A program made the position numbers and the translations under genes. Positions 1,372 through 51,173 of a stretch of 64,000 bases of DNA are shown here, in pieces; position 1 is the stretch's first letter, and each line of letters starts with the position of its first letter. The notes under the pieces are model-generated. The model had not been told where the DNA came from. It saw only the letters and a list, made by a program, of their open reading frames with translations, and ran no database searches. The stretch is from Eledone cirrhosa (taxonomy: Eukaryota), in assembly GCA_964016885.1 (NCBI GenBank), contig OZ024740.1:63054001-63118000 (forward strand), read 5' to 3'.

Positions 1372-1487
1372 TTTCCACCTGGCCGTTTGATTAATAAAAG
1401 GCCTCGGGCGCACCCAAACTACACCGATGTCCTGTAATTCAGCGCCGAAACATCGGTTCAGGATACATTTACAGCTGACGATGGGAA
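1372..1487 (+). ncRNA. Candidate strand-permuted (pseudoknotted) hammerhead ribozyme, family 1 copy 1
   Basis: GGCGC/GCGCC (II), ACCGATGT/ACATCGGT (III), GTC site, CTGTAA/TTACAG (I); GAAA lies upstream of CTGACGA. Confidence 0.65.
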
Positions 1488-2162
1488 CTTCCTTTCTCCT
1501 CCTGTTCCGTCCTAACCACCATCCTAAACATTGTTTTTAGTAACCACACAGCTCCTTTCGTTTCATAACTTTTTGTATTTACTGCTGTGACCCTACCTAC
1601 TTTGTTCGACCTGTGTACCCTCCACACTTTCTCATCGACCCTCCTTTTTCTCTTCCCTTCTCCTCCTCACTCTCGTTTTTATTCTCTCTCCCTCTCTCTC
1701 TCTATCCATCCGTTCGGTTTTGATTGTTGACATGTTTACATGTGCCGTGGTGGCCTCTCTGTCCGCAATCTTTGCGGCACGTTTTTACCACCGTCGTAAA
1801 TAAACCCTTCTGGATTATCTCCCTTTCCCTTCTCCTCCTCATTTTTGGTTGCCCGTGTCTCTCTCTCACTTTCTCCTGTTTATGTGAGAGGCAGCACGAT
1901 TATACCAGCTCTGAGTCGTAACTGACCACCAGGCTAAAGTCTCCCAGGTTGGCCACAACTTACTTTCCCAATTTTTCCACGGTTGCTTTTTTTGCCTGTT
2001 TCTTTCACCTGTGTCTTCCTACGATATGATCTGTACACTTATTTTTCTTCTATTCCTTTCCTATTTTTCCCCTTCTTCCTCTCACCTCACCCCCCCCCCT
2101 GTTCTTCCTCCTTTCCATCTCTTTCCTTTTCTCTCTCCTTTTTTTCTCTCTTTCTCTCTCCT

Positions 2163-2276
2163 TTTCCACCTGGCCTTTTGATTAATAAAAGGCCTCGGGC
2201 GCACCCAAACTACACCGATGTCCTGTAATTCAGCGCCGAAACATCGGTTCGGGATACATTTACAGCTGATGATGGA
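2163..2276 (+). ncRNA. Candidate strand-permuted hammerhead ribozyme, family 1 copy 2
   Basis: Same helices; core CTGATGA 2266-2272, GAAA 2238-2241, GTC 2220-2222. Confidence 0.65.
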
Positions 2277-2540
2277 CACTCCTTTCTTCCTTTCTCCTCC
2301 TGTTCCGTCCTAACCACCATCCTAAACCTTGTTTTTAGTAACCACAGAGCTCCTTTCGTTTCATAACTTTATATATACAGTATATAGATATAGATATATA
2401 TATATAAATATAATCCTCGTCGAGCCCTCTTCGGATTTTAGTCTTCACACTTCTGAAACTCAGATGATCCCGTTAAGGGTGAAAGCAGCGATTCTTTTGC
2501 TTAAACATTAATCTGTTCTTTTAATATATATATATATATA

Positions 2541-7343: not shown

Positions 7344-7367
7344 ATATATATATATATATATATATAT

Positions 7368-7999
7368 ATCTTTAAAGCGAAGAAATACCAAGGAAAGCTG
7401 GAGGATCACTGATGAAGGACTTATTTTATTTCTATGTAACCCATGTGCAGCCACGCAGCACGCCATTTTTCATATATTTATATTTTTTCCTCCGCTGCAA
7501 CCTGTCTGTTTCTTTCTTACTGCTTCCCCTTTCTCTGTATCTCTCACCTTCTTTTTACCCCCTCTGCCAGTCACTCTCTCTCCGCTGGCCTCTTCCTCAC
7601 ACTTTCACTCACTCACTCTCTGCTTCTCCCTCTCTCACTTCCTCCCGTTTAACCTGTGTGAAATCCTTTTCTCGCTCACATCTCACACAGGTGGGATGGT
7701 CTTTATCTCTCCTCGTCTAAGATTTCACCGAACTTAAGTTCACAGATATTACGGACTTGTTTCTCCTCTTCCTATCTTTCCGTTGCATTACCATCTATGT
7801 TTGTTTACATGTCTCGCTCGCTTCACCCTATTTTACGTGTCCCAATAACTTTCTTTAGTTATTGCTCGCACCAACCAGAGGTATATGATCTTTAAAGCGA
7901 AGAAATACCAATGAAGGCTGGAAGATCACTGATGAAGGACTAATTTTATTCATATGTAACCCATGTGCAACGACGCAGCACGCCATTTTTCATATTTAT
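7368..7999 (+). mobile_element. Non-autonomous retrozyme/PLE-like element with direct repeats (period 520 bp)
   Basis: 7368-7480 repeated at 7888-7999; pyrimidine-rich interior; (TA)n flanks. Confidence 0.7.
7839..7940 (+). ncRNA. Candidate strand-permuted hammerhead ribozyme, family 2
   Basis: GTCC/GGAC, hairpin CAATAACT/AGTTATTG, TCGC/GCGA (II), GGTAT/ATACC (III), ATA site, TGATCTT/AAGATCA (I); GAAA lies upstream of CTGATGA. Confidence 0.65.
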
Positions 8000-8018
8000 A
8001 TATATATATATATATATA

Positions 8019-8290
8019 TAAGGAAAAAAGATGAAATCGAAAATGCAACAGTAGTCTTTTTTTTTTTAAATATATATATTTATTTGGTTCCTTTACCATC
8101 TCAACTCTACTTTTGAAAAGCAGAAGAACTGCGAAACCGGTAAAGGAACCAAATAAATATATATATTAAAAAAAAAAAAGACTCCAGTTGTATTTTCAAT
8201 TTCATCTTTTTTCCTTATACTTTCACTCGTGTAGGACACCTCGGTTATTTTTCATTTTGTGAAAAAAAAAATACCTCACTTTCTAATTTA
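8019..8290. mobile_element. Inverted pseudo-LTR pair with U3-A8 variant HHR at 8110-8145 (+)
   Basis: ctt-TTGAAAA-gcag aagaa ctgc-GAAA-CCGG-TA-aag; homologous copy at 48915-49040 (-). Confidence 0.65.
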
Positions 8291-10769: not shown

Positions 10770-10825
10770 ATATATATATATATATATATATATTTCGTTT
10801 CTGAATTTGTTTAGCAAGATTCTTT

Positions 10826-12685
10826 TGGGACCCTGTCGCGGGACCACCAACACGGCCAGTCTGTGGGGCTAACATTGCTAGTAACTACAGACTGTCCTAC
10901 TTCCTCTCCCTGATCATACGCCCCATCATTGAGATGTCCCCAGATGTGTGTGACAGCACGGAGGACCTCCTCAGCAGAATCGACGCGGGTAACCGATCTG
11001 GAGACCTAACAAACTGCATAATAGGCAGTATGGATGTTGTGTCCCTGTATCCATCTATTGACGTGGATTTTGCTGTGGAGAAATGCGTCGAAATGATCAG
11101 CGAGAGCAAGGTTGAGTTCCGTGGGATTGATACCAGTGAGCTGGGACTTCTACTTAAGCTTACCCATAGTAATAGTTACCTAGACACTTATGACCTTAGC
11201 AACCTGTGCCCTACAAGACCAGCAAGAGGCAGACCACCTACCATTACCTCAATGGCCAAGAAAACCCACACAGATAGATGGAACGGGTGGACCAGAGCCA
11301 TACGGACACCCGAAAACCACGATGAACTGAAGAAAATGATTGCACATGCGGTAGGGGCCAGCATAAAATTAACCCTTAAGGAACATATGTTCAAATTTAA
11401 TGGTAAAACATATGCCCAAGAGGAAGGAGCAGCCATTGGTGTTAGCATTGCAGGCGACATAGCTAACTTGTTCATGGTATGGTGGGACAGTAGACTTAAA
11501 CAAAAACTTAAAGAACAATTAGAAGACAGATTAACCCTGATAATGTACTCCCGCTACGTAGATGATATAAACATCGTAGTTAAGACACCCCCACTAAAGA
11601 ACAGTCAGGAACCTGAGAAAAACACAATGGAAAGCATCCAGCAAATAGCAAACTCCATCCACCAGAGCATTAGAGTTACTATAGACTACCCAAGTAGACA
11701 CCCCAACCATCGATTACCTGTACTAGACACAGAGCTCTGGTTAGATACTATTAACAACCAAAAACAAATCCTCCATTCCCATTATGCCAAACCCATGACT
11801 TCCAAACATCTGATCCACCGAAACTCGGCCATTTCGGACCATACCAAAATCAACATACTGATTGCGGATTTGATACGGGTGATGAGAAATGTGTCCCGCA
11901 TGTGCAACCCCGAAGAACTAGAGAGACACATACAACACTTCATCCACCGTATGCAGTTCTCTGGCTACAATCAGAGAGATAGAATCAGAGTGTATAAAGG
12001 AGCCAGAACCAAATGGGAAAAAATGGTAAATAATGACATAAATGGGACCTGCCCCTTGTATAGGAGCAAATTTTGGAATAGAATAGAAAGAACTAAGAAC
12101 AAGGCCAATAGAATAAACTCATGGTATGATAGCAATAAATACCAGAGTGTAATGTTCATCAACACAACCCCTAGAGGTGAACTAGCCTACAAATTTAGAA
12201 GGGCCCTAAAGAAACATAATCTCAATATTAAGATAGTAGAAAGACCTGGTACCTCCGTAAAAACACTTATTAGCAAGACATACCCGTTCCAAAGACCCTC
12301 ATGTATAGATAAGAAATGTATAACCTGTAAAATAAGCCCCCATATTAACTGTAAAACTAGAAATGTAGTATATAGCATAAGATGTACTGAGGGACAATGT
12401 AGAGACAAAAATATAGTGTACATAGGTGAGACAGCTCGTAGTATAGGGGAACGAATAAATGAACACTGGCGAGACCTCCAAGATAGTAAAGAATCATCTG
12501 TGCTCTACCAACATGCTAAGATAGAACACAGGGGTAAATTAGAGAGCATAGAAATAAAAATAGAATCCACACACAAGAAAGACGCAATGTTTAGGCAAAT
12601 TACAGAGGCAGTAAGCATAAAAGAATTAAAACCAAAATTAAATAGAAAATATGAGTGGAACAGCAACATCACAACCTACAATTAA
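10826..12685 (+). pseudogene. 5'-truncated PLE RT/GIY-YIG ORF (first partial unit)
   Basis: Identical in protein to the C-terminal half of 13128-17108; starts mid-ORF. Confidence 0.9.
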
Positions 12686-12973
12686 GGACAAAATGAAAAC
12701 ACACACACACATATATAAACAACTTACAATTGAAAACACACACAAAATGAAAACACACACATGAAAACACACACACACATAGAACAAACAACCAACCAAC
12801 AATAAATAAATAAATAAACAAACAAATATAAATAGAAAAATAGAAAAATGAACACAAACACACACAGACACCCGGATGTGGCGCATGCGCAAACTGAGCA
12901 CGCAACCCACACACAAACAAAATGGCGTAGGATAGAAGAAAGGAAAGGCACAGAAACGAAGAAAGAAATCCCC

Positions 12974-13018
12974 AGTCACTGAAGAGGTCACAGAGTGTGT
13001 GACGAAAGAACTATGACT
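12974..13018 (+). ncRNA. Minimal type I hammerhead ribozyme in the pLTR of the autonomous PLE
   Basis: agtca-CTGAAGA-g-gtcaca gagtg tgtgac-GAAA-gaac-TA-tgact. Confidence 0.8.
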
Positions 13019-13127
13019 ATATATATATAAACAACTATCTGGTTGTGGAACCAACCAACCAACCAGAAATTTATAAATTTGTAAATTTATAAATATATAT
13101 TAAATTAAATTGAAGTGAAAGCAACTG

Positions 13128-16100
13128 GTGCGTGTGTTTCTTATTGGCAACATGGCCCTCCCAAAGTATAACAATATCGGTTTCAACACACGATTTCAGA
13201 TAAAGAATCTTGCTAAACAAATTCAGAAACGAAATATCGTAAGCCTTAGCCAGGCTAACAAGATACTGAAAACCACCATGTTCTGTTGTCTACGAAAAAC
13301 CATAACATCTCGACAACTACACTTCATAAAACTGTGCACCACTTCTAGAATCTACACCAACACCATCAATACCGACGTTAGAAGATTACAACTCACCAAA
13401 AAACAAGCAGATGGGCTAAAACGAACTTTAATTCTAAACATAAAAAAGAAGATCTATAGAGAATTAAGTCATCAAGAAAAACTAAAGCGTAACCTAATAG
13501 ATGAAATATCTAAAATCACCACACCAGCAGAAAAACTAACATTTATAAGCCTTATACGCCCCGAAGAACAGTACATTACTCAAGAATGTAATAAGCACTT
13601 TAACAGAAAATTAAAGTGGCTTAAACAGGCAAAGCTAAATCGGGATACTATAGAGTATACCAATAGATATCCCGACAAAATTGACGGTATCAACATGGCC
13701 GACACCTCATTATCTGAAGAGTTCAACAATGAAAATACCAACATTTATGGAAACACGAAAATAGATAGTAATGAAATGTCTGTGTTAAGTCTGCCACCCA
13801 AATTTGCGACATTTAAGAAGGTAAATATGATTAGTTGTCTGTCAGAAATAGAAAAATCATTTACGAAACTACGCTGGAGCATCAAAAACAAAAACAAAAG
13901 CAACAATATACGCACACACATATACAACACACATCCCAACAACAACAGACACACAGACACAAACAACAATAACAACAACAATAGCAACATACCCAGATAC
14001 AATAACAACAATAGCAACATACCCAGATACAACAGACACGCAGACACAAACAACAATAACAACAACACACACATCAACAACAACAACAGCAACATACCCA
14101 GATACAACAACAACAGACACGCAAACACAAACAACAATAACAACACACACAACAACGATAACACACACACACACGGAGACAACAGACACGCAGACACAAA
14201 CAACAATAACAACACACACGGAGACAACAATAACAACAACACACACATCAACAACAACAACAACAGCAACATACCCAGATACAACAACAACAGACACGCA
14301 AACACAAACAACAATAACAACACACACAACAACGATAACACACACACACACGGAGACAACAACACACATCAACAACAACACACATCAACAACAACAACAC
14401 ACACACATTCAATGCCTCTCACCACCACTACAATCTTAACAAACACACAGACACAGAAAACAAGTAATGACAGTAGCACAGAAATCAGAGAAATAAGAGA
14501 AAGTAATAGGATTAAAAGGAGTAGGGAGACTAAGGACAAAGAGAATAACCAAGACGAACACACAGACACACAAAATAGGGTAGATAACAACATTGAGCCA
14601 GTGGAAAGAGATAGGAGTAATTATGAGAGACATAGAAACAACCATGAAGCTGAGGCTGCTGCTGTTGGTGGAAATAGAAACAACACAACTAACAATAGCG
14701 CAAGTACACATAAAGCAGCAGCCTGGAACTCTCCGTTTTATAACCCCTCCGATAAATCATTCGACCTACGACGAGTCCACGCCACGACTTTGCCATTTAA
14801 CAAACGCACGCAGTTGCCGTCGCAGGTCGATGAACAAACAGAAGCACAATTTAGTATAGCTAAATCCGAACTTAGAAATATTATAGAACAGTATAGCAAG
14901 AAGCATAATAGAATAGAGGCCCAGCAACTGGGAGAAGAATCTGCAAATGGCTTGCGTAAGCTCATGCAGCGCTCGCGTAATGGAGAGATAGCATGCTTTC
15001 CAACAGACAAGTCCGGCAGAATGTCGGTTGACAGCCTGCCAAACTACATCCAGGCAATGCAACCCCACATCACTAACACAAGAGAGGTAACACCACAGGA
15101 GCATGAGGACAGAGAAAAAACCCTCAATGCCCATATGGTGATGTGGACAAATATAATGCAGCCCAACAAAAGGACTGCCAACAACTTCCAGGCCTGGAAC
15201 AATGACGTGCCGGCGTTGTATGGGCTTCGAAAAGACCATAAAACGGGCTGGGACCCTGTCGCGGGACCACCAACACGGCCAGTCTGTGGGGCTAACATTG
15301 CTAGTAACTACAGACTGTCCTACTTCCTCTCCCTGATCATACGCCCCATCATTGAGATGTCCCCAGATGTGTGTGACAGCACGGAGGACCTCCTCAGCAG
15401 AATCGACGCGGGTAACCGATCTGGGGACCTAACAAACTGCATAATAGGCAGTATGGATGTTGTGTCCCTGTATCCATCTATTGACGTGGATTTTGCTGTG
15501 GAGAAATGCGTCGAAATGATCAGCGAGAGCAAGGTTGAGTTCCGTGGGATTGATACCAGTGAGCTGGGACTTCTACTTAAGCTTACCCATAGTAATAGTT
15601 ACCTAGACACTTATGACCTTAGCAACCTGTGCCCTACAAGACCAGCAAGAGGCAGACCACCTACCATTACCTCAATGGCCAAGAAAACCCACACAGATAG
15701 ATGGAACGGGTGGACCAGAGCCATACGGACACCCGAAAACCACGATGAACTGAAGAAAATGATTGCACATGCGGTAGGGGCCAGCATAAAATTAACCCTT
15801 AAGGAACATATGTTCAAATTTAATGGTAAAACATATGCCCAAGAGGAAGGAGCAGCCATTGGTGTTAGCATTGCAGGCGACATAGCTAACTTGTTCATGG
15901 TATGGTGGGACAGTAGACTTAAACAAAAACTTAAAGAACAATTAGAAGACAGATTAACCCTGATAATGTACTCCCGCTACGTAGATGATATAAACATCGT
16001 AGTTAAGACACCCCCACTAAAGAACAGTCAGGAACCTGAGAAAAACACAATGGAAAGCATCCAGCAAATAGCAAACTCCATCCACCAGAGCATTAGAGTT

Positions 16101-17108
16101 ACTATAGACTACCCAAGTAGACACCCCAACCATCGATTACCTGTACTAGACACAGAGCTCTGGTTAGATACTATTAACAACCAAAAACAAATCCTCCATT
16201 CCCATTATGCCAAACCCATGACTTCCAAACATCTGATCCACCGAAACTCGGCCATTTCGGACCATACCAAAATCAACATACTGATTGCGGATTTGATACG
16301 GGTGATGAGAAATGTGTCCCGCATGTGCAACCCCGAAGAACTAGAGAGACACATACAACACTTCATCCACCGTATGCAGTTCTCTGGCTACAATCAGAGA
16401 GATAGAATCAGAGTGTATAAAGGAGCCAGAACCAAATGGGAAAAAATGGTAAATAATGACATAAATGGGACCTGCCCCTTGTATAGGAGCAAATTTTGGA
16501 ATAGAATAGAAAGAACTAAGAACAAGGCCAATAGAATAAACTCATGGTATGATAGCAATAAATACCAGAGTGTAATGTTCATCAACACAACCCCTAGAGG
16601 TGAACTAGCCTACAAATTTAGAAGGGCCCTAAAGAAACATAATCTCAATATTAAGATAGTAGAAAGACCTGGTACCTCCGTAAAAACACTTATTAGCAAG
16701 ACATACCCGTTCCAAAGACCCTCATGTATAGATAAGAAATGTATAACCTGTAAAATAAGCCCCCATATTAACTGTAAAACTAGAAATGTAGTATATAGCA
16801 TAAGATGTACTGAGGGACAATGTAGAGACAAAAATATAGTGTACATAGGTGAGACAGCTCGTAGTATAGGGGAACGAATAAATGAACACTGGCGAGACCT
16901 CCAAGATAGTAAAGAATCATCTGTGCTCTACCAACATGCTAAGATAGAACACAGGGGTAAATTAGAGAGCATAGAAATAAAAATAGAATCCACACACAAG
17001 AAAGACGCAATGTTTAGGCAAATTACAGAGGCAGTAAGCATAAAAGAATTAAAACCAAAATTAAATAGAAAATATGAGTGGAACAGCAACATCACAACCT
17101 ACAATTAA
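13128..17108 (+). CDS. Penelope-like element polyprotein: reverse transcriptase plus C-terminal GIY-YIG endonuclease (likely ATG 13152), with a Cys-rich linker as in Neptune-type PLEs
   Basis: RT motifs GSMDVVSLYPSI, QEEGAAIG..IANLFM, RYVDD; linker C-x4-CxxC-x7-C; GIY-YIG NVVYSIRC..YIGET.R...R..EH..E..LN. Confidence 0.95.
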   Translation: MRVFLIGNMALPKYNNIGFNTRFQIKNLAKQIQKRNIVSLSQANKILKTTMFCCLRKTITSRQLHFIKLCTTSRIYTNTINTDVRRLQLTKKQADGLKRTLILNIKKKIYRELSHQEKLKRNLIDEISKITTPAEKLTFISLIRPEEQYITQECNKHFNRKLKWLKQAKLNRDTIEYTNRYPDKIDGINMADTSLSEEFNNENTNIYGNTKIDSNEMSVLSLPPKFATFKKVNMISCLSEIEKSFTKLRWSIKNKNKSNNIRTHIYNTHPNNNRHTDTNNNNNNNSNIPRYNNNNSNIPRYNRHADTNNNNNNTHINNNNSNIPRYNNNRHANTNNNNNTHNNDNTHTHGDNRHADTNNNNNTHGDNNNNNTHINNNNNSNIPRYNNNRHANTNNNNNTHNNDNTHTHGDNNTHQQQHTSTTTTHTHSMPLTTTTILTNTQTQKTSNDSSTEIREIRESNRIKRSRETKDKENNQDEHTDTQNRVDNNIEPVERDRSNYERHRNNHEAEAAAVGGNRNNTTNNSASTHKAAAWNSPFYNPSDKSFDLRRVHATTLPFNKRTQLPSQVDEQTEAQFSIAKSELRNIIEQYSKKHNRIEAQQLGEESANGLRKLMQRSRNGEIACFPTDKSGRMSVDSLPNYIQAMQPHITNTREVTPQEHEDREKTLNAHMVMWTNIMQPNKRTANNFQAWNNDVPALYGLRKDHKTGWDPVAGPPTRPVCGANIASNYRLSYFLSLIIRPIIEMSPDVCDSTEDLLSRIDAGNRSGDLTNCIIGSMDVVSLYPSIDVDFAVEKCVEMISESKVEFRGIDTSELGLLLKLTHSNSYLDTYDLSNLCPTRPARGRPPTITSMAKKTHTDRWNGWTRAIRTPENHDELKKMIAHAVGASIKLTLKEHMFKFNGKTYAQEEGAAIGVSIAGDIANLFMVWWDSRLKQKLKEQLEDRLTLIMYSRYVDDINIVVKTPPLKNSQEPEKNTMESIQQIANSIHQSIRVTIDYPSRHPNHRLPVLDTELWLDTINNQKQILHSHYAKPMTSKHLIHRNSAISDHTKINILIADLIRVMRNVSRMCNPEELERHIQHFIHRMQFSGYNQRDRIRVYKGARTKWEKMVNNDINGTCPLYRSKFWNRIERTKNKANRINSWYDSNKYQSVMFINTTPRGELAYKFRRALKKHNLNIKIVERPGTSVKTLISKTYPFQRPSCIDKKCITCKISPHINCKTRNVVYSIRCTEGQCRDKNIVYIGETARSIGERINEHWRDLQDSKESSVLYQHAKIEHRGKLESIEIKIESTHKKDAMFRQITEAVSIKELKPKLNRKYEWNSNITTYN

Positions 17109-17396
17109 GGACAAAATGAAAACACACACACACATATATAAACAACTTACAATTGAAAACACACACAAAATGAAAACACACACATGAAAACACACACACA
17201 CATAGAACAAACAACCAACCAACAATAAATAAATAAATAAACAAACAAATATAAATAGAAAAATAGAAAAATGAACACAAACACACACAGACACCCGGAT
17301 GTGGCGCATGCGCAAACTGAGCACGCAACCCACACACAAACAAAATGGCGTAGGATAGAAGAAAGGAAAGGCACAGAAACGAAGAAAGAAATCCCC

Positions 17397-17441
17397 AGTC
17401 ACTGAAGAGGTCACAGAGTGTGTGACGAAAGAACTATGACT
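17397..17441 (+). ncRNA. Minimal type I hammerhead ribozyme (unit 2 pLTR)
   Basis: Identical to 12974-13018. Confidence 0.8.
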
Positions 17442-17550
17442 ATATATATATAAACAACTATCTGGTTGTGGAACCAACCAACCAACCAGAAATTTATAAA
17501 TTTGTAAATTTATAAATATATATTAAATTAAATTGAAGTGAAAGCAACTG

Positions 17551-20500
17551 GTGCGTGTGTTTCTTATTGGCAACATGGCCCTCCCAAAGTATAACAATAT
17601 CGGTTTCAACACACGATTTCAGATAAAGAATCTTGCTAAACAAATTCAGAAACGAAATATCGTAAGCCTTAGCCAGGCTAACAAGATACTGAAAACCACC
17701 ATGTTCTGTTGTCTACGAAAAACCATAACATCTCGACAACTACACTTCATAAAACTGTGCACCACTTCTAGAATCTACACCAACACCATCAATACCGACG
17801 TTAGAAGATTACAACTCACCAAAAAACAAGCAGATGGGCTAAAACGAACTTTAATTCTAAACATAAAAAAGAAGATCTATAGAGAATTAAGTCATCAAGA
17901 AAAACTAAAGCGTAACCTAATAGATGAAATATCTAAAATCACCACACCAGCAGAAAAACTAACATTTATAAGCCTTATACGCCCCGAAGAACAGTACATT
18001 ACTCAAGAATGTAATAAGCACTTTAACAGAAAATTAAAGTGGCTTAAACAGGCAAAGCTAAATCGGGATACTATAGAGTATACCAATAGATATCCCGACA
18101 AAATTGACGGTATCAACATGGCCGACACCTCATTATCTGAAGAGTTCAACAATGAAAATACCAACATTTATGGAAACACGAAAATAGATAGTAATGAAAT
18201 GTCTGTGTTAAGTCTGCCACCCAAATTTGCGACATTTAAGAAGGTAAATATGATTAGTTGTCTGTCAGAAATAGAAAAATCATTTACGAAACTACGCTGG
18301 AGCATCAAAAACAAAAACAAAAGCAACAATATACGCACACACATATACAACACACATCCCAACAACAACAGACACACAGACACAAACAACAATAACAACA
18401 ACAATAGCAACATACCCAGATACAATAACAACAATAGCAACATACCCAGATACAACAGACACGCAGACACAAACAACAATAACAACAACACACACATCAA
18501 CAACAACAACAGCAACATACCCAGATACAACAACAACAGACACGCAAACACAAACAACAATAACAACACACACAACAACGATAACACACACACACACGGA
18601 GACAACAGACACGCAGACACAAACAACAATAACAACACACACGGAGACAACAATAACAACAACACACACATCAACAACAACAACAACAGCAACATACCCA
18701 GATACAACAACAACAGACACGCAAACACAAACAACAATAACAACACACACAACAACGATAACACACACACACACGGAGACAACAACACACATCAACAACA
18801 ACACACATCAACAACAACAACACACACACATTCAATGCCTCTCACCACCACTACAATCTTAACAAACACACAGACACAGAAAACAAGTAATGACAGTAGC
18901 ACAGAAATCAGAGAAATAAGAGAAAGTAATAGGATTAAAAGGAGTAGGGAGACTAAGGACAAAGAGAATAACCAAGACGAACACACAGACACACAAAATA
19001 GGGTAGATAACAACATTGAGCCAGTGGAAAGAGATAGGAGTAATTATGAGAGACATAGAAACAACCATGAAGCTGAGGCTGCTGCTGTTGGTGGAAATAG
19101 AAACAACACAACTAACAATAGCGCAAGTACACATAAAGCAGCAGCCTGGAACTCTCCGTTTTATAACCCCTCCGATAAATCATTCGACCTACGACGAGTC
19201 CACGCCACGACTTTGCCATTTAACAAACGCACGCAGTTGCCGTCGCAGGTCGATGAACAAACAGAAGCACAATTTAGTATAGCTAAATCCGAACTTAGAA
19301 ATATTATAGAACAGTATAGCAAGAAGCATAATAGAATAGAGGCCCAGCAACTGGGAGAAGAATCTGCAAATGGCTTGCGTAAGCTCATGCAGCGCTCGCG
19401 TAATGGAGAGATAGCATGCTTTCCAACAGACAAGTCCGGCAGAATGTCGGTTGACAGCCTGCCAAACTACATCCAGGCAATGCAACCCCACATCACTAAC
19501 ACAAGAGAGGTAACACCACAGGAGCATGAGGACAGAGAAAAAACCCTCAATGCCCATATGGTGATGTGGACAAATATAATGCAGCCCAACAAAAGGACTG
19601 CCAACAACTTCCAGGCCTGGAACAATGACGTGCCGGCGTTGTATGGGCTTCGAAAAGACCATAAAACGGGCTGGGACCCTGTCGCGGGACCACCAACACG
19701 GCCAGTCTGTGGGGCTAACATTGCTAGTAACTACAGACTGTCCTACTTCCTCTCCCTGATCATACGCCCCATCATTGAGATGTCCCCAGATGTGTGTGAC
19801 AGCACGGAGGACCTCCTCAGCAGAATCGACGCGGGTAACCGATCTGGGGACCTAACAAACTGCATAATAGGCAGTATGGATGTTGTGTCCCTGTATCCAT
19901 CTATTGACGTGGATTTTGCTGTGGAGAAATGCGTCGAAATGATCAGCGAGAGCAAGGTTGAGTTCCGTGGGATTGATACCAGTGAGCTGGGACTTCTACT
20001 TAAGCTTACCCATAGTAATAGTTACCTAGACACTTATGACCTTAGCAACCTGTGCCCTACAAGACCAGCAAGAGGCAGACCACCTACCATTACCTCAATG
20101 GCCAAGAAAACCCACACAGATAGATGGAACGGGTGGACCAGAGCCATACGGACACCCGAAAACCACGATGAACTGAAGAAAATGATTGCACATGCGGTAG
20201 GGGCCAGCATAAAATTAACCCTTAAGGAACATATGTTCAAATTTAATGGTAAAACATATGCCCAAGAGGAAGGAGCAGCCATTGGTGTTAGCATTGCAGG
20301 CGACATAGCTAACTTGTTCATGGTATGGTGGGACAGTAGACTTAAACAAAAACTTAAAGAACAATTAGAAGACAGATTAACCCTGATAATGTACTCCCGC
20401 TACGTAGATGATATAAACATCGTAGTTAAGACACCCCCACTAAAGAACAGTCAGGAACCTGAGAAAAACACAATGGAAAGCATCCAGCAAATAGCAAACT

Positions 20501-21531
20501 CCATCCACCAGAGCATTAGAGTTACTATAGACTACCCAAGTAGACACCCCAACCATCGATTACCTGTACTAGACACAGAGCTCTGGTTAGATACTATTAA
20601 CAACCAAAAACAAATCCTCCATTCCCATTATGCCAAACCCATGACTTCCAAACATCTGATCCACCGAAACTCGGCCTTTTCGGACCATACCAAAATCAAC
20701 ATACTGATTGCGGATTTGATACGGGTGATGAGAAATGTGTCCCGCATGTGCAACCCCGAAGAACTAGAGAGACACATACAACACTTCATCCACCGTATGC
20801 AGTTCTCTGGCTACAATCAGAGAGATAGAATCAGAGTGTATAAAGGAGCCAGAACCAAATGGGAAAAAATGGTAAATAATGACATAAATGGGACCTGCCC
20901 CTTGTATAGGAGCAAATTTTGGAATAGAATAGAAAGAACTAAGAACAAGGCCAATAGAATAAACTCATGGTATGATAGCAATAAATACCAGAGTGTAATG
21001 TTCATCAACACAACCCCTAGAGGTGAACTAGCCTACAAATTTAGAAGGGCCCTAAAGAAACATAATCTCAATATTAAGATAGTAGAAAGACCTGGTACCT
21101 CCGTAAAAACACTTATTAGCAAGACATACCCGTTCCAAAGACCCTCATGTATAGATAAGAAATGTATAACCTGTAAAATAAGCCCCCATATTAACTGTAA
21201 AACTAGAAATGTAGTATATAGCATAAGATGTACTGAGGGACAATGTAGAGACAAAAATATAGTGTACATAGGTGAGACAGCTCGTAGTATAGGGGAACGA
21301 ATAAATGAACACTGGCGAGACCTCCAAGATAGTAAAGAATCATCTGTGCTCTACCAACATGCTAAGATAGAACACAGGGGTAAATTAGAGAGCATAGAAA
21401 TAAAAATAGAATCCACACACAAGAAAGACGCAATGTTTAGGCAAATTACAGAGGCAGTAAGCATAAAAGAATTAAAACCAAAATTAAATAGAAAATATGA
21501 GTGGAACAGCAACATCACAACCTACAATTAA
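17551..21531 (+). CDS. Penelope-like element RT/GIY-YIG polyprotein, second full copy
   Basis: 1326 aa; differs from the first copy by one residue (SAIS to SAFS). Confidence 0.95.
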   Translation: MRVFLIGNMALPKYNNIGFNTRFQIKNLAKQIQKRNIVSLSQANKILKTTMFCCLRKTITSRQLHFIKLCTTSRIYTNTINTDVRRLQLTKKQADGLKRTLILNIKKKIYRELSHQEKLKRNLIDEISKITTPAEKLTFISLIRPEEQYITQECNKHFNRKLKWLKQAKLNRDTIEYTNRYPDKIDGINMADTSLSEEFNNENTNIYGNTKIDSNEMSVLSLPPKFATFKKVNMISCLSEIEKSFTKLRWSIKNKNKSNNIRTHIYNTHPNNNRHTDTNNNNNNNSNIPRYNNNNSNIPRYNRHADTNNNNNNTHINNNNSNIPRYNNNRHANTNNNNNTHNNDNTHTHGDNRHADTNNNNNTHGDNNNNNTHINNNNNSNIPRYNNNRHANTNNNNNTHNNDNTHTHGDNNTHQQQHTSTTTTHTHSMPLTTTTILTNTQTQKTSNDSSTEIREIRESNRIKRSRETKDKENNQDEHTDTQNRVDNNIEPVERDRSNYERHRNNHEAEAAAVGGNRNNTTNNSASTHKAAAWNSPFYNPSDKSFDLRRVHATTLPFNKRTQLPSQVDEQTEAQFSIAKSELRNIIEQYSKKHNRIEAQQLGEESANGLRKLMQRSRNGEIACFPTDKSGRMSVDSLPNYIQAMQPHITNTREVTPQEHEDREKTLNAHMVMWTNIMQPNKRTANNFQAWNNDVPALYGLRKDHKTGWDPVAGPPTRPVCGANIASNYRLSYFLSLIIRPIIEMSPDVCDSTEDLLSRIDAGNRSGDLTNCIIGSMDVVSLYPSIDVDFAVEKCVEMISESKVEFRGIDTSELGLLLKLTHSNSYLDTYDLSNLCPTRPARGRPPTITSMAKKTHTDRWNGWTRAIRTPENHDELKKMIAHAVGASIKLTLKEHMFKFNGKTYAQEEGAAIGVSIAGDIANLFMVWWDSRLKQKLKEQLEDRLTLIMYSRYVDDINIVVKTPPLKNSQEPEKNTMESIQQIANSIHQSIRVTIDYPSRHPNHRLPVLDTELWLDTINNQKQILHSHYAKPMTSKHLIHRNSAFSDHTKINILIADLIRVMRNVSRMCNPEELERHIQHFIHRMQFSGYNQRDRIRVYKGARTKWEKMVNNDINGTCPLYRSKFWNRIERTKNKANRINSWYDSNKYQSVMFINTTPRGELAYKFRRALKKHNLNIKIVERPGTSVKTLISKTYPFQRPSCIDKKCITCKISPHINCKTRNVVYSIRCTEGQCRDKNIVYIGETARSIGERINEHWRDLQDSKESSVLYQHAKIEHRGKLESIEIKIESTHKKDAMFRQITEAVSIKELKPKLNRKYEWNSNITTYN

Positions 21532-34003: not shown

Positions 34004-34040
<37 letters not shown>

Positions 34041-34049
34041 CATATATAC

Positions 34050-34080
<31 letters not shown>

Positions 34081-35999
34081 CACACATATACATACACACA
34101 TACACACATAATGCTCCATTTAATTTACAAATTAAGGATAATATTGCTAAAAATTTTTTTTATATTCTAGAGAAAAACTTCCCGCCAAACCACAAATACC
34201 ATCAAATCTTAAATAGGTCTACAGTTAAATTCTCATACTCAACAACAAATAACATAAAACAAAATATAAGTGCCTATAATGCATATAAATGTAAGAAAAC
34301 CATAAGTATACCACCAATACATCAAACTAACCATAATATCTCCTCAAATACAGAATTAACGAAAGGTTGTAACTGTAGAAACAAAGCAAACTGCCCATTA
34401 AAAGGAAATTGTCTTGTTAACAACATAGTTTATAAATGTAATGTTAAAACTAAAGATTCTATTTGCTCATATATAGGAGCTACTTCTAACAATTTTAAGA
34501 CAAGGTTTAATACCCACAAACATAGTTTTAAAAATGCCGCACTGGCTAATACAACATCTCTAGCAGAAAAAATCAATAGTTATAAAAATAAGAATATAGA
34601 ATATGATTTGACCTGGAGTGTGCTCAAAAGAGCCACCCCTTATCAAAATAATAGAAATGAATGTAGATTATGTTCCCAAGAACTATTTGAAATAATGAAA
34701 TCTAAGGATATCCTATTAAATAAACGACAGGAATTAATTATATCGTGTAATCATAAACTAAAAAAAACATTTAAATATTATAAACCTAATTAATAACATT
34801 ATTTTAGAAATTAATATATAATTTAATTTAAATGTTAGTTAACCTATAAATTTAATTTAATTAAAATTCTACTACAGATGAGAATATAAAATATTGTGTA
34901 ATCATAAATTGTGAAAAACCTTTAAATATTACTAATATATACTTAGTAATTTAATTTATAGATTAATTTTAATTTATTTAACCCTTTATTAAAATTCCTT
35001 TACAGATAAAATATAACAAAATATCGTGTATTCAATGACAGAGAAATAATTTTTAGTATTATAGACCTAATTAATATACATTTTAGAAATATATTTATAA
35101 TTTGGTTTTAAATTTGGTCAACCTAAAAATTTAATTTAATTGGCTTAAAAATAGTATCCTAATACAGATGGATTGTCATATATACAGAGTGTCATGTAAT
35201 CATAGAATGGGATAGGTTTTGGATGTATACCTAGTTAATATATTCTTTGCAATTTTTGAAAAAATATGTATATGTATGTATATATATGTATGTGTATATA
35301 TGTATATATATGTGTATATATATATGTATGTATATGTATATGTGTATGTATTAATTTTAATTTCTGTTTACCTATAATTATATTCTACTATTGATAAAAT
35401 ACAATATCTGTTTTATTTATTATATACCTAATTAACATATACTATAGAAATTAATATATAATTTTTAATTTAGTTAACCTATAATTTATATTCTACTACC
35501 GATGTAATACTTTATTTGTTTTTTCCCTATTACTAAATTCATTTCCTAATATTGATACCATAACGTTAATAATTTTAATTTAGTTATACTATAATTAATA
35601 CTCTACTACTATTTAACTTCAAAATTCTGCTTCAAATATTATAAACCTAAGTAATTTACACCTTAGAAATCAATATATTAACTATCTTTAGTTTAGTTAA
35701 CCTATAATTAATGGTATACTTATATTGAAATGCATAGTTTTGCCTTCTTTCTTGCATTTCCTAATACTGAAACTATGTAAACACATATTGTGATCTAAAT
35801 GCAGATTAATATTCTATGTTTCTTGAAACATATATTTACTATAATCCCCTTCTCCCCCCCCCCTTCCCCCACTACTATTATTATTTGTATTTGTAAGCGT
35901 GTATGTATGTATGTATATGTAGGTAGGTGTATATATGTTTGGGTGTTTATATGTAAGTATAAAAATACATATATGCGCATGCAAATAAGGGTGTATGAT

Positions 36000-41942: not shown

Positions 41943-42431
41943 ATTATAATTTTCAATCATAATTTTTTTTTGATTTTAGGTTTTAAGTTTAAAGTTTTTA
42001 AATTTGAAATTATTTTTTTAATTTAAATTTTTGTCATTTTGCCATTTCGTTTTTTCCGTCCTCTTTCCTACTTTTCTATAATTATATATTCCCAAAATAG
42101 TCATCGTACTTAATTCATGAATTTTAAAGTACGGCGCTTTATATCCTTTACTCATTACCATTACACCAGCACCAACGTCGTCACACCAATATCACCCAAC
42201 ATCTTCCACCTGTCATATATATATATATGCATGCATTTGAACTTGAATATTCATATTCATATCTGTATGTATGATATATATATATGCATGTTTCTGTGTA
42301 GGCAAGTATTTCTTTACATATGTGCACGTATTTTTATATGTGTATATGTATCTACACATATCTGTATGTATATATGGACATTCATATGTATATGTGTATA
42401 TATGTGTATGTATATATGTATGTACGTGTGT

Positions 42432-43345
42432 GCAAAACAACTCTTTTATGGAGAGTTGGTTAAAGGAAAACGACCGCCACATAAACCAAAAAAGAGGTAT
42501 AAGGATTCCTTGAAAGCGTCTCTAAAACACGCTAACATCTCTGCTGATACATGGGAGAATATTGCTGCTGATCATAATAAATGGAGAAAGACTGTATATG
42601 AGGGAAAAGTTGCCTTTGAGGCATCTCGAATCGCATACGAGAAAGTAAAGCGGGATGTGAGGAAGGGCATTGCTGTTGCACTTCCAGACGGCGAGGGTCC
42701 TCCTATGGTGCTGACATGCAGCGTATGTGCGAGACTCTGCCTAAGCAAAGCTGGACTCGAAAGTCATCTTCGCAGTCATAAAGTAAGACCAGTGGTTGAC
42801 TACCAGGCTGCTGTTGGAGATGCTACTCATCATGCTTGCCAAACATGTGGTAGAGAATGTAAATCAGGAGGAGGGCTCAAGCGACATGCAAAAGTACACG
42901 AACTCCAACCACAGCCGACTATTTCCAGTGAATGTTTTGGTTGCCGACTCTGTGCAAGACATTTTAGATCATTGGCTGGGCTAAAAAGCCACATTCGATC
43001 GCAGCGCTGTTAGTTGCTATCGTGTGTGTGTCTGTGTAGATATGCTTATGTGTGTGCGTGTGTGTGTGTATATATATGTATATGTATATTATTATTGTTG
43101 TTGTCGTTATTATTATTGTTGTTATTATTATTATTATTATTATTGTTATTAATGTATGTGTGTTTGTATATATGTGTGTGTGCGTGTGTATGTGTATGTA
43201 TATGTATATATATATATATATTCCTTTTTTTTTTTTTCTTTTTAATTTTCATTTTCTTTTTATTTATTTATTATTATTTTTTATTTATTTTTTTTTTCTT
43301 CTCGTGCAATGGCCATAATCGATAACGAGGGGGCAGCCATCATCA
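42432..43345 (+). pseudogene. 3' fragment of an RTE-type non-LTR retrotransposon with three C2H2 zinc fingers
   Basis: KQLFYGEL..GKR....PKKRYKDSLK..WE..A.D...WR followed by CxxC..SxxGLxxH repeats; ends ..gcagccatcatca. Confidence 0.75.
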
Positions 43346-44908: not shown

Positions 44909-47900
44909 GAAAATGATTCCGTTAGTAGGAATATTTTTGAATTAACATATTTTCCCTACTTATTCGTATTTGTTCTGTTGTATTGTCAGCGCAAACGTAT
45001 GTTAAGGTTTATTTAATTCGGGTTTTTATTTTCTAAAGTAGCAGGTGTTATGTGTGTGTGTATGTGTCTGTTTAGATGGTTAGCATGTTATGGTGTTGAC
45101 ATAATGTATATTAAACCATATTTAATGCTGGTCTATATTTTTGAATAAACATATTTTCCTTATTTATTCGTATTTGTTCTGTTGTATTATCAGCGCAAAG
45201 GTAAAATGGGAAGACTTTGAATTTGGGTGTCTTATTACTTGCGCAAATGTCTAGATGTGCGCTTAGTGGTATCTGTCTCGTGGTTGGATCTCGTAATTGT
45301 TGGCGATGAACTGTCATTCTGTTTTTGAGTGTGAGTTTAGTTTGTCCTATGTAATCTTCATTGCATCCTTTATATTTAATGGCATAAAGTAGATTTTTTG
45401 ATGAGCAGTGAAGTGATTTTTTATAGCAAAATTTTGTCCTGATTTAAATGTATACATGTTGCCTTCAAAGAGGTGAGTGCGGGTTCCACAATTAGAGAGA
45501 CCACATTTTTTGACAGTTGGTTGTGGGTTTGTGGTAGGTAATTTGGCATTGGTGAGTAATGTTTTCAGTGATTTCGGTTGTCTTTTGCTTTTGATTATTT
45601 TGTGTGTTTCAAGGGCTTTTTTCATTCTTGGGTCTTGTTTTAGTAGTGGGATGTTCTTGTGAATAGTGTTGTAAGCTTCCGCATTTCTTGGGTTGTGTGT
45701 TGAGATATATGATAGAATATTGGACGTACCTTGAATTTGTTTCTGTTTTCGTAATTCATCAATGTCTATTGCTCTAGCCCTTTCTATTCCATTATTAGTA
45801 ATGGTGGGTACTCTCTTTCGAGTAGAATTTCCTTTAATTCTTGAAGTCTTTTATTTCGCGTTTCATAATTGGAGACAATTGTGCAGATTCTTCTTTCTAG
45901 GTTAAAAGGAATGTTCGTCTTCGTGTGCTTTGGATTGTTGGAGGTGAATAGCAGGTATTGTTTGGAATCTGTTGGTTTGTAGTGTATGTCAGTTTCAATA
46001 GTTGTGTCTTTTTTTAAGATTAAGATGTCCAGAAATGGGAGTTGATCTTGGCTGTATTCCATTGTCAATTGGATGTGGTTATTGATGCCGTTTATTAAGT
46101 TTTTGAAATCCTTCAGTTGGTCGAGTGTGTGGGACCAAAGAATGAGACAATCATCCAAGTAGCGTTTCCAATTCTCTGATAAATATTTGTGGAAGTTCAA
46201 TCCGTATTTTGATTTGGACTGTTCATATATCTGGACTTCTAAGTATGCCATGACTAAGTTGACATAAGTTGGAGCGGCTTTTGTACCCATCGCAGTCCCC
46301 GATATTTGCTTGTAAGTACTGCCATCGAAATCAAAAAAGTTGTTTTGTGAGATAAATTTTAATCATTCAGTGATGAAGCTTTTTTCTATTCTGCCAGGTA
46401 TCTCATTGGGATATTTCTCTAGCCAGAATCCTATTACTTCTAGTCCGTATTGGTGTGGGATCGTTATGTAGAGATTCAATACATCGAAAGACACAATAAT
46501 AGTGTCGTTGTTGACATGTTTAGGGGGGTGGTTTAAGAGGTCCAGATCGTCTCTTACAAGGCTTGGTATGTGTTTGAGAATTGGTTTTAGTAGTATGTCT
46601 ATAAAGTTGCTCAGTCTGTGTGTTTCACATTGTGGGCCCGCTACAATTGGTCTTAATTTAAGGTCTGTGGGGGTATTGTGTGTTCACGCAGGCTGAGCTG
46701 GATTGTTTACAGGCATCGTTAATTATTTTACACTTGTGGATCTTCAGAAGTCCGTAAAGGTTGCTGGTTTTGTATTCAAAATGTGTTAAATAATCGCGTT
46801 CTTTTTTAGTTAGGTCTTCCTGGTATCGACAAATCAGTGTGTTTAATCTGGTCATTGTTTTTGATTGCTGGTAGATTTTTACTCTTTCATCGTAATTAGT
46901 ATTTTGTAAGAGAGAGAACATAGAATTTTTTTATTTTTCAGCATCCATAATGATGACAGTACTTCCCTTGTCCGCTCCTTAATTATAATGTCCGTATTGT
47001 TTTTTAGTTCATGGATAATCTCCCATTCCCTTCGACTCGTGTTGGGGTTGGGCTTAGGTTGCGGTAGTTCATGGTATGGGAAAGTAGCTATGTGGTCACA
47101 AAATTTGTCCAGAACTCTGTTTCTACCTTTTGTTGGGTTGTAGCTGCTTTTATTCTGTACAATTGATTGGTCGTTATTCTCCTTGTCAAAGAATTCCTCT
47201 GTGAAACGTAATTTTCTACAGAAGTGTGAGATATCGTCATTTATCTCATTGAGGTTAGAGTATTGTGGTGTTGGTGTGAATTTCAGTCCTTTGGAGAGAA
47301 TTTTTACTTGTTGGGCTGAGAGGTTTGTATTTGAAAGGTTGATTATTTTCGGTTTTTCAAAATCGGTTTGTGCCACCGGGTATCGTGGGTCCTGTAGCCT
47401 TGGTCTAAAAAATGATTTTTCTGGAATGTTTTTTCAATGGTATTATTATATGTAATGGTATTTCCCCTGTTGTTGTGTGGTCTTGTGTAGAAGTTTCGGA
47501 CGTATTGAGGTTCGGTTTGTTGATAGTCCATGTTGTAGATTTTGTTCCTTTGTGTGGGTTGGGATCTACGATTTTGGAACAGGCTCTGTGTGGGCAGTGG
47601 TCTACGGTTTTGGAATAGGTTTTGTGTGGGTTGTGATCTGCGGATCGGGTCCTGTCTTGTGTTGGGGAATCTTCGGTTTTGTTAGTAGGGTTATAGTTTT
47701 GTCTATGAGTTCTGGGATTATCGTTATAGTTTTGCTGGAGGTATGTTGGGCGATTTGTTACTTTTTTGTTATTTGATGTGCATGTTTTGTTACTTTTTTT
47801 GTTATTTGTTGTGCATGTGGTGTGTGAGTTTTAGTTTGTTTTAAAAATGGGTTACCTGTTTATTGTTCATTTTTGAAGTCCATTTCGTAGTTGTTGAACC

Positions 47901-49346: not shown

Positions 49347-51173
49347 TTGTTATACTTTGGGAGGGTCATGTTGCCAATAAGAAACACATGCACCAGTTGC
49401 TTTCACTTCAATTTATTATAAATTAAATTTATAAATTTATAAATTTCCGGTTGGTTGGTTGGTTCCACAACCAGACGATTGTTCATATATTGTCAAAGTT
49501 CTTTCGTCACACATTCTGTGACCTCTTCAGTGACTGGGGATTCTTTTCTTTGTTTTTGTGCCTCTCCTTTGTTCTGTCCTACGCAATCTTGTTTTTGTGT
49601 GTGTTGTGTGCTTAGTTTGCGCATGTGTTACATCCGGGTGTCTGTGTGTGTTTATATTTGTTACTGGTTGGTTGTTTGTTCTATGTGTGTATGTGTTTTC
49701 ATTTTGTCCTTAATTGTAAGTTGTGATGTTGCTATTCCACTCATGTTTTCTATTTAATTTTGGTTGGAGTTCATTTATGTTTATTGCCTCTGTGACTTGT
49801 CTAAACATTGCGTCTTTTCTGTGTGTAGATTCTATTTTTATTTCTATGTTCTCTAATTTACCCTTATGTTCTATTTTAGCATGTTGGTGGAGTACAGATG
49901 AATCTTTTCTATCTTGAAGCTCTCGCCAGTGTTCATTTATCCGTTCTCCTATACTACGAGCTGTCTCACCTATGTACACTATATTCTTATCTCTAAATTG
50001 TCCTTCAGTACATCTTATGCTATATACTACATTTCTAGTTTTACAGTTAATATAGGGGCTTAGTTTACAGATTATACATTTCTTATGTATACAGGGAGGT
50101 CTTTGACAATGGTATGTATTGCTAATAAGTGTTTTTATGGAGGTACCTGGTCTTTCTACTATCTTAATATTGAGTTCATGTTTATCTAGGGCCCTTCTAA
50201 ATTTGTAAGCTAATTCACCTCTAGGGGTTGTGTTGATGAACATTACACTCTGGTATGTATTGCTATCATACCATGAGTTTATTCTATTAACCTTATTCCT
50301 AGTTCTTTCTATTCTATTCCAAAATGTGCTCCTATACAAGGGGCAGGTCCCATTTGTATCATTATTTACTATTTTCTCCCATTTGGTTCTGGCTCCTCTA
50401 TATACTCTGATTTTATCTCTCTGATTGTAACCAGAGAACTGCATACGGTGGATGAAGTGTTGTATGTGTCTCTCTAGTTCTTTGGGGTTGCACATGCGGG
50501 ACACGTTTCTCATCACCCGTACCAAATCCGCAATCAGTATGTTGATTTTGGTGTGGTCCGAAACAGCTGAGCTTCGGTGGATCAGATATTTGGAAGTCAT
50601 GGGTTTGGCATAATGGGAATGGATGATTTGTTTTTTGTTATTAATGGTTTCTAACCAGAGCTCTGTGTCTAGTACAAGTAATCGATGGTTGGGGTGTTTG
50701 CTTGGGTAGTCTATAGTAACTCTAATACACTGGTGGATGGAGTAGCTATTTGCTGGATGCTTCCATGGTGTTTTTCTCTAATTCCTGACTGTTCTCTAGT
50801 GAGGGTATTTTTACTACGATGTTTATATCATCAACGTAGCGGGAGTACATTATCAGGGTTAAGAGGTTGCTGACTTCTAATTGTTCTTTAAGTTTAAGTT
50901 TAAGTCTATTGTCCCACCATACCATGAATAGGTTAGCTATGTCACCTGCAATGCTAACACTAATGGCTGCTTCCTCCCCTTGGGCATACGTTTTTCCATT
51001 AAATTTGAACATATGTTCCTTAAGGGTTAATTTTATACTGGCCCCCACCGCATGTGCAATCATTTTCTTTAGTTCATCGTGATTTTCGGGGGTCCGTATG
51101 GCTCTGGTCCACCCGTTCCATCTATCTGTGTGGGTTTTCTTGGCCATTGAGGTAATGGAAGGTTGTCTGCCTC
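49347..51173 (-). mobile_element. Diverged, 5'-truncated, frameshifted relative of the tandem PLE; HHR at 49492-49535
   Basis: ORFs 50746-51147 and 49710-50600 align to the 1326-aa protein; same 3' terminus aagtataacaa(TA)n. Confidence 0.9.

Follow-up and report, generated by a model that had tools for sequence, protein, structure and literature searches.

A candidate hammerhead ribozyme with a detached stem II strand in a dispersed non-coding repeat of Eledone cirrhosa

A 64,000-nt stretch of the Eledone cirrhosa genome (GCA_964016885.1, contig OZ024740.1, forward strand, positions 63,054,001 to 63,118,000; hereafter the window) contains, at 7839-7940, a sequence that a first-pass annotation had read as a permuted hammerhead. 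The locus raises the question of whether a hammerhead core whose stem II strand lies apart from CUGAUGA can be a genuine ribozyme and, if so, which element carries it. We consider it likely that the carrier is a tandem retroelement unit, non-coding and present in many copies, and that its RNA, by prediction a split S-G-C hammerhead opened between A9 and stem II, cuts itself after A7885.

Every element that the annotation had placed within 7839-7940 lies where it was reported (Table 1). The core motifs CUGAnGA, GAAA and UH stand in register with stems I and III, and every invariant hammerhead core nucleotide is present. The elements run in the order helix A, hairpin H, B, 1 nt, T, 2-5 nt, III-H17-I, 3-5 nt, B'-GAA-III', ~6 nt, T', 1 nt, I'-CUGAnGA, 0-1 nt and A', where B/B' is stem II and T/T' is the tertiary helix. 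Here, 10 nt separate cTCGC (7865-69) from GGTAT (7880-84), and 12 nt separate ATACC (7905-09) from AAGATCA (7922-28); at full length the latter forms stem I with TGATCTT (7886-92), which is followed by TAAA and GCGAa. The motif CGCACC(C)AA, which the annotation had described as shared by two families after helix II, is present and actually spans two elements: helix II, which ends in it, and a sixth helix, T, which begins in it. Helix T of this copy has one A-C mismatch, and a perfect GGTTGG is found in 28 of 33 junction-locus copies. At the level of sequence, these features confirm 7839-7940 as a hammerhead core in non-circular S-G-C order, with the 5' strand of stem II upstream and split from CUGAUGA, and we infer that the closing helix and hairpin would clamp that strand to CUGAUGA. 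The order and fold given by the annotation stand; it had overlooked the published type SGC order (PMC10085705), the tertiary helix and the membership of the sequence in retroelements.

Table 1. Coordinates of the repeat units, the hammerhead elements and the related copies (window positions, except for the LINE copies, which are given by locus).
Feature	Position	Strand	Remarks
Family-2 non-coding repeat unit, period 520 nt, unit positions 1-526	7470-7995	+	High copy number, dispersed
5'-truncated upstream copy of the family-2 unit (unit ~413/420-526)	7363-7475	+	Without block S; starts in an (AT)n run a few nt past the predicted cut
Family-2 3' tail, 37 nt	7959-7995	+	Absent from inverted copies; runs into (AT)n
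Unit position 97 (GCCAG...)	7566	+	5' end joined to the predicted scissile nucleotide in 51 other genomic copies
Helix A (clamp), 5' strand GUCC	7839-7842	+	Pairs with 7937-7940
Hairpin H, 8 bp: CAATAACT 7843-50 / AGTTATTG 7857-64	7843-7864	+	Abuts helix A on one side and the stem II 5' strand on the other
Helix B = stem II 5' strand, cUCGC	7865-7869	+	Detached from CUGAUGA; C7865 mismatches A7901
Tertiary helix T, 5' strand CCAACC	7871-7876	+	Stem I-II interaction helix
Block S	7880-7891	+	Stem III 5' GGUAU 7880-84, predicted scissile A7885, stem I 5' UGAUCU 7886-91
Block G	7897-7909	+	Stem II 3' GCGAa 7897-7901, GAA 7902-04, stem III 3' AUACC 7905-09
Tertiary helix T, 3' strand GG(C)UGG	7916-7921	+	C7918 is U in most unselected copies
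Block C, first half	7923-7935	+	Stem I 3' AGAUCA 7923-28, CUGAUGA 7929-35
Extra A7936, then helix A 3' strand GGAC	7936-7940	+	
Family-1 split-hammerhead copy	1374-1490	+	Predicted scissile C1431; outer ends approximate
Family-1 split-hammerhead copy	2165-2280	+	Predicted scissile C2222, 791 nt beyond the first; outer ends approximate
R2-superfamily LINE copies	L438 6099-9700; L439; L442		Split hammerhead in 3' UTR

A descriptor of the S-G-C order (stem III-UH-stem I ... GAA-stem III' ... stem I'-CUGAnGA) matches three complete copies in the window, with scissile sites at 1431, 2222 and 7885. Dinucleotide shuffles of the window gave no match with stem III of at least 5 and stem I of at least 6 (0 of 100), and loose matches averaged 0.04 per window. 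The genome, that of an animal, measures 3.0 Gb and contains many AT microsatellites. A first look at it yielded 2,786 candidates for family 2, 1,132 for family 1 and 2,234 for a third family, with 40 of each scored. When blocks G and C were searched with a pattern that leaves out the family-2 majority, 2,748 matches were found genome-wide compared with 184 for a reversed control pattern, and the loci from the copy searches resolve into at least nine subfamilies. A strict scan of 60 unselected stretches of DNA, 600 kb in all, found 12 canonical type I hammerheads and a single S-G-C copy, the latter itself a family member; one shuffle gave one match of each kind. Viral contigs contained 38 pattern loci, two of them with weak 4-5 bp descriptor matches. 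Rfam gave no match in the window at the gathering threshold, and at E<=10 neither 7400-8050 nor the LINE 3' UTR described below matched a hammerhead family, the matches being chance ones such as snR66 (23.6 of 65 bits). Of the features of Rfam hammerhead types I-III, 7839-7940 has neither the circularly permuted order nor the nested three-way junction nor the Rfam score.

The annotation had argued that covarying helices point to a selected RNA fold. This claim was supported by alignment of genomic copies, in which all six helices covary. Over 12 families, comprising nine non-coding repeat families of this genome and three unrelated families, the percentages of pairing between matched and swapped strands were 98/55 for A, 93/54 for H, 85/65 for B (p 3.5e-4), 100/61 for T, 97/76 for III and 98/62 for I, with p values here and below that are optimistic because helix registers were set by hand for each family and the families are related. 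Within the nine repeat families, the corresponding values were 93/71 (A), 92/71 (H), 98/59 (T), 96/86 (III) and 98/73 (I), with permutation p<=0.0013; stem II alone was not significant there (80/74%, p 0.17), because its CGC/GCG is invariant. A MAFFT alignment of 13 copies further supported the fold: 94% of cells are paired, slid partners pair in 25-47%, and 17 of 33 pairs change on both sides compared with 9.2 after shuffling, a value that 0 of 500 shuffles reached. Helix T contributes two-sided change in five of its six pairs, and the count of further pair types on this alignment was not above shuffles (117/500). The alignment left out L163, L066, L170, L156, L121, L159, L152 and L182 and added L185, which is mis-windowed and lacks A and H. 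Nested folding displays only A, H and I (MFE z-score -1.8), as would be expected if the other helices cross.

The detached strand raises the issue of which nucleotide serves as position 10.1. Five of the 12 families, including both coding LINEs and the coral-Naiad-type family, have a perfect 5-bp stem II in which the upstream strand supplies the G10.1-C11.1 pair, and in these the nucleotide after CUGAnGA cannot pair with 11.1. In four others (F2b, F4, F5 and F7) that nucleotide could pair with 11.1 and the upstream alternative is mismatched, and in the last three, family 2 among them, neither candidate pairs with 11.1 (C-A or A-A in family 2). A canonical stem II, with its strand directly after CUGAnGA, has a median of 0-2 bp in 9/9 repeat families and 0 in LINE and coral-type copies. 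The C-A mismatch beside GAAA, which had been flagged as a flaw of the 7839-7940 copy, is indeed present there and is not peculiar to it: A occupies 11.1 in 31 of 33 family-2 copies chosen solely by their junction and in all 34 top-match copies. Since this mismatch is the norm for family 2, the 7839-7940 copy may cut weakly. A weak core-proximal pair presumably need not abolish activity, and family 2, having lost the 10.1-11.1 pair, is likely slower than the versions in coding elements. Taken together, we regard the fold as almost certainly real and the class as very probably catalytic, and the chances that the 7839-7940 copy would cut well as about even.

Genomic junctions coincide with the predicted cut. 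Three loci first showed unit position 416 (A7885) joined to unit position 97 without microhomology, and across the genome 56 copies depart from the unit sequence immediately after the scissile nucleotide: 51 have the 416|97 junction, likewise without microhomology, four have insertions of 1-3 nt at the bond, and one has a deletion starting there. A control pattern placed 3 nt downstream had two matches, with no such junction or insertion. The pattern is blind to junctions with T as the next base, and none of these occurred among the loci examined. Some loci contain 320- or 840-nt units bounded by two junctions. The junction-bearing copies (50 loci) fall into about three haplotype lineages, most with a common junction-proximal marker, which implies that the 51 junctions may stem from one to three events. 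Junctions at the cut were absent from 10 matches of family 1 and four of family 3, no family-1 copy starts at the cut among 100 of 303, and all of 16 LINE copies continue past it. Splicing was rejected as the origin of the 416|97 junction, since GTATA is kept and the nearest CAG lies 5 nt downstream of the junction. These junctions lend modest support to the idea that a free RNA end may once have existed at the predicted bond. At unit position 97 a 6-bp hairpin (GCCAG../..CTGGC; 7566-7589) starts, preceded by a pyrimidine tract, and the site resembles an initiator.

Family-2 copies are often partial tandems with an inverted 5' part. Among 29 loci chosen by similarity, 12 contain both orientations, and 36 segments end at unit position 526 and nine at 489, 37 nt short. 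The tail at 7979-7988 ends in CGCCATTTT, whose reverse complement, AAAATGGCG, occurs also in the repeat of the window's Penelope-like element (PLE); we take this end to resemble a YY1 site. The sections of PMC8557442 covered name as Penelope-like features a partial tandem arrangement, inversion of 5' copies, a tail of 30-40 bp and insertion into (TA)n; as judged from its genomic copies, the family-2 unit has this Penelope-like insertion anatomy in all four respects. No ORF is linked to the non-coding units in the genomic copies examined, narrow searches found no homology of the unit to an autonomous PLE of the genome, and two narrow motif searches of low sensitivity found no Naiad in the genome. 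A 5.2-kb repeat was rejected as the autonomous element, being a tandem segmental duplication, and the window's tandem PLE was rejected as a partner, having no link to the family-2 unit.

That tandem PLE occupies 10805-21531 with a period of 4,423 bp and has two intact 1,329-aa frames and a truncated one. A hammerhead core of canonical order (CTGAAGA at 12979, 17402 and 21825) lies ahead of each frame, and an older inverted relative of the element is located at 49710-51213. Canonical type I (C-G-S) minimal hammerheads occur in the window at 53, 2794, 23725/23852, 40763, 53110, 53622 and 63888, several as inverted pairs, and are typical of PLE pseudo-LTR remnants. Mobile-element fragments at 34008-34793 and 45347-47433 include a GIY-YIG end and a second PLE reverse transcriptase (RT). 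The piece at 42114-43013 is presumably the end of a zinc-finger-rich LINE, and that at 62759-63232 presumably part of a Helitron-like helicase.

The same architecture is found in coding elements. Naiads are described as lacking canonical hammerheads, with eight flagged 'HHR_half_core', in the portions of Craig et al. (2021; PMC8557442) covered. By eye, the full A|H|B..T..S..G..T'..C..A' layout is present at the 3' end of 7 of 54 Naiad consensus entries in its supplement, a reading that covered CTGATGA places 13-62, CTGACGA places 2-23 unbroken by a line end, and FASTA parts 1 and 19. These seven are three Acropora entries that are nearly identical (their names were inferred from the headers that follow), one part-12 entry, Naiad_EuTe, Naiad_Obim and Naiad_Ovul, the last of which is flagged 'HHR_half_core'. 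In the same partial material, a ctenophore Naiad entry has a variant of the split layout. The split layout may be the ribozyme reported missing from Naiads. Other 3' ends in parts 13-19 of the supplement, also read by eye, include a long-loop C-G-S form in nematode entries, an unsplit SGC form in part 17, and others in parts 17-19.

A metagenome scan found at least 119 loci, with 24 descriptor matches among the matches listed. Of these 24, 19 belong to the coral-Naiad-type family, 14 of which are in the 12-family profile, and no Naiad ORF motif was found beside the coral-Naiad-type matches among those listed. Also among the matches listed, L349 (-) and L373 (+), on metagenome contigs, are of the unsplit SGC form with a 5-bp stem II, and by their motifs are further members of the type SGC of Eckert et al.; L296 and L298 have the split form, and L295, one of the 24, was left unparsed. 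In L298 the split hammerhead follows, by 42 nt, an ORF for a 994-aa RT plus RLE-type protein (RVT_1, zf-RVT) whose best solved relatives are R2 proteins. The C-terminus of this protein has 151 matches in the E. cirrhosa genome, and 26 of 30 loci examined reach the C-terminus. In 16 of these 26, GAAA..CUGAnGA lies within 330 nt, and 10 entered the profile. This LINE family of the genome is 3.6 kb long and belongs to the R2 superfamily; we take its clade to be HERO. The predicted cut lies ~90 nt inside its 3' end, within the 3' UTR. In this ribozyme helix A spans 12 bp, H 8 bp and the perfectly paired B 5 bp, and the linkers resemble those of family 2. Two LINE loci are partial tandems in which a 5'-truncated copy runs straight into a full-length one, the junction being the same in both. 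The LINE 3' region aligns to family 2, core included, with a score of 80 versus 51.7 +/- 5.5, above all 500 shuffles. Because the two 3' ends resemble each other, the LINE remains an alternative partner of the family-2 unit.

Three other explanations were weighed against these data. One holds that the pairings are a by-product of low-complexity repeats and alignment by hand, with no selected RNA structure. The hand-set registers, the non-independence of related families and the unremarkable z-score of a nested fold limited to A, H and I speak for it, but a nested folding program cannot display crossing helices, and the shuffles of the window, the pattern counts (2,748 versus 184) and the slid controls all argue against chance. 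The scan of unselected DNA, with one S-G-C match, a family member, against one in a single shuffle, counts on the same side. The spacing and the helices recur in unrelated coding elements and other phyla, and covariation across unrelated elements already contradicts such an artefact; we regard this explanation as close to untenable. A second explanation accepts the fold but reads it as an ordinary type SGC hammerhead whose stem II is a single base pair, formed by the nucleotide after CUGAUGA and the nucleotide before GAA and opening into a peripheral junction, so that block C is unsplit. Such a pair is possible in the four families whose upstream alternative is mismatched, and L349 and L373 demonstrate that unsplit SGC forms with a 5-bp stem II exist among the metagenome matches. 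In the five families with a perfect stem II, however, 10.1 is available from the upstream strand only; the canonical stem II has a median of 0-2 bp in all nine repeat families, and the remainder of stem II would still derive from upstream. We therefore consider the single-pair stem II distinctly unlikely. A canonical type I fold formed across tandem units was rejected as well, since stem II still cannot form after CUGAUGA.

The third explanation also takes the fold as real and inherited from an active ribozyme, and proposes that family 2 has lost cleavage, the fold being retained as a 3' recognition structure for the reverse transcriptase. It is consistent with the loss of the 10.1-11.1 pair from family 2, with the A-C mismatch in helix T of the 7839-7940 copy, and with new insertions that reach past the cut in nearly all copies. 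Against it, CUGAnGA, GAAA and UH (H never G) are kept in 12/12 family profiles while the helices drift, and the scissile-bond junctions occur in family 2 itself. We judge an inactive family 2 to be unlikely.

In the self-cutting hammerhead that we prefer, helix A and hairpin H would stack with no unpaired nucleotides and place A9 and 10.1 side by side, so that this clamp would keep CUGAUGA beside the upstream stem II strand, and helix T with its 4-5 nt linker would dock stems I and II. Standard hammerhead chemistry would then cut at AUA^U to leave 2',3'-cyclic phosphate and 5'-OH ends. Four helices (A, B, T and III, about 19 bp) bridge the two predicted products, which implies that a single cut would be a reversible nick. 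Such a nick may re-ligate or be crossed by reverse transcriptase; R2-type enzymes are capable of end-to-end jumping. A nick that can be re-ligated or crossed would explain why the element keeps a ribozyme astride its own cut. Two cuts in a tandem transcript, by contrast with a single one, would release a 520-nt monomer. An RtcB-type ligase could close this monomer into a circle, by analogy with animal retrozymes, and a reverse transcriptase/endonuclease borrowed from another element could then copy it into (AT)n, beginning about 110 nt past the cut. The tail and the inversions point to a Penelope-like (Naiad-type) element as the most likely source of this enzyme.

On balance we favour, with some reserve, a broader interpretation, namely that a hammerhead of four blocks, clamped by a helix and a hairpin where it is open between A9 and stem II, is a widespread, overlooked ribozyme of animal retroelements. 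Both R2-superfamily LINEs and Naiads, from cnidarians to crustaceans and cephalopods, would have it at their 3' ends; it would be the ribozyme that Naiads reportedly lack, would have seeded thousands of retrozyme-like repeats, and would make a reversible nick with paired products, not a release cut. A split core breaks the assumption behind the catalogue of six permutations, that CUGAnGA is inseparable from its stem II strand, and brings non-circular RNA permutations, described from metatranscriptome contigs, into animal genomes, where copies number in the thousands. It also offers a testable answer to why Naiads seemed to be without hammerheads, and Naiads may be a reservoir of hammerhead permutations. 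Within a LINE 3' UTR, cutting should matter for reverse transcription. Because standard descriptors and Rfam miss the split form entirely, censuses of animal hammerheads are probably incomplete. We found no prior description of the split core, of non-circular animal hammerheads, or of the motif in Naiads or LINE 3' UTRs in the literature covered, outside which lie most subscription journals and the Repbase reports.

The closest known system is the type SGC (the HRIMA-1 motif and variants) that Eckert, Friedrich, Weinberg and Weinberg (2023; PMC10085705) validated and for which they defined blocks S, G and C. In the passages of that paper covered, type SGC has a ~3-nt linker between stems I and II and an I-II helix, and the authors assume that at most 1-2 nt can separate CUGAnGA from its stem II strand. 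The split form shares the S-G-C order, the short I-II linker (typically 3 nt there, 3-5 nt here), full core conservation and a helix that links stems I and II on their other sides. In contrast, block C is intact in type SGC, whereas here the stem II strand lies upstream of block S, clamped by A and H; moreover, that motif came from metatranscriptome contigs, and the split form comes from animal retroelements in thousands of copies. The parts of the PMC10085705 supplement covered contain no octopus, and the terms penelope and eukaryot occur in references only. Judged by its sequence, the split hammerhead should work like type SGC but lacks the intact block C of that type.

Like the minimal type I hammerheads of Penelope-like pseudo-LTRs (Cervera and de la Pena, 2014; PMC4209133), the split form lies near the 3' end of tandem or inverted insertions, and an unpaired nucleotide after CUGAnGA is tolerated in both. 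Those hammerheads follow the C-G-S order, their stem III is palindromic and weak, and they are thought to function as dimers; the split form, by contrast, combines a tertiary helix and crossing helices with a full stem III of 5-8 bp. Animal non-coding hammerhead tandems are expressed as circles, and RtcB ligates them in vitro, according to the parts of PMC7229834 covered. A 2026 preprint (bioRxiv 10.64898/2026.07.22.740005) ties such non-LTR retrozymes to PLEs; it searched type I motifs only and, in the passages covered, contains nothing on permuted motifs. As far as these two sources were covered, non-LTR retrozymes resemble the present repeats in being dispersed non-coding tandem units of a few hundred nt with one hammerhead each, and a PLE origin has been proposed for them. 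Retrozymes are defined by type I hammerheads and their circular RNA has been shown, whereas the present units, of 520-790 nt, contain split S-G-C hammerheads.

With Naiads, as described in the covered part of PMC8557442, family 2 shares (TA)n targets, a 30-40 bp tail and inverted 5'-truncated copies; Naiads encode GIY-YIG and RT, whereas the family-2 unit encodes nothing. Among R2-superfamily (RLE) non-LTR retrotransposons, the E. cirrhosa LINE and L298 have the split hammerhead in the 3' UTR with near-identical linkers. The ribozyme at the 5' end of R2 is HDV-like. Unlike that 5' ribozyme, which R2 itself uses according to the part of PMC3414825 covered, the LINE hammerhead lies near the opposite end, ~90 nt inside the 3' end.
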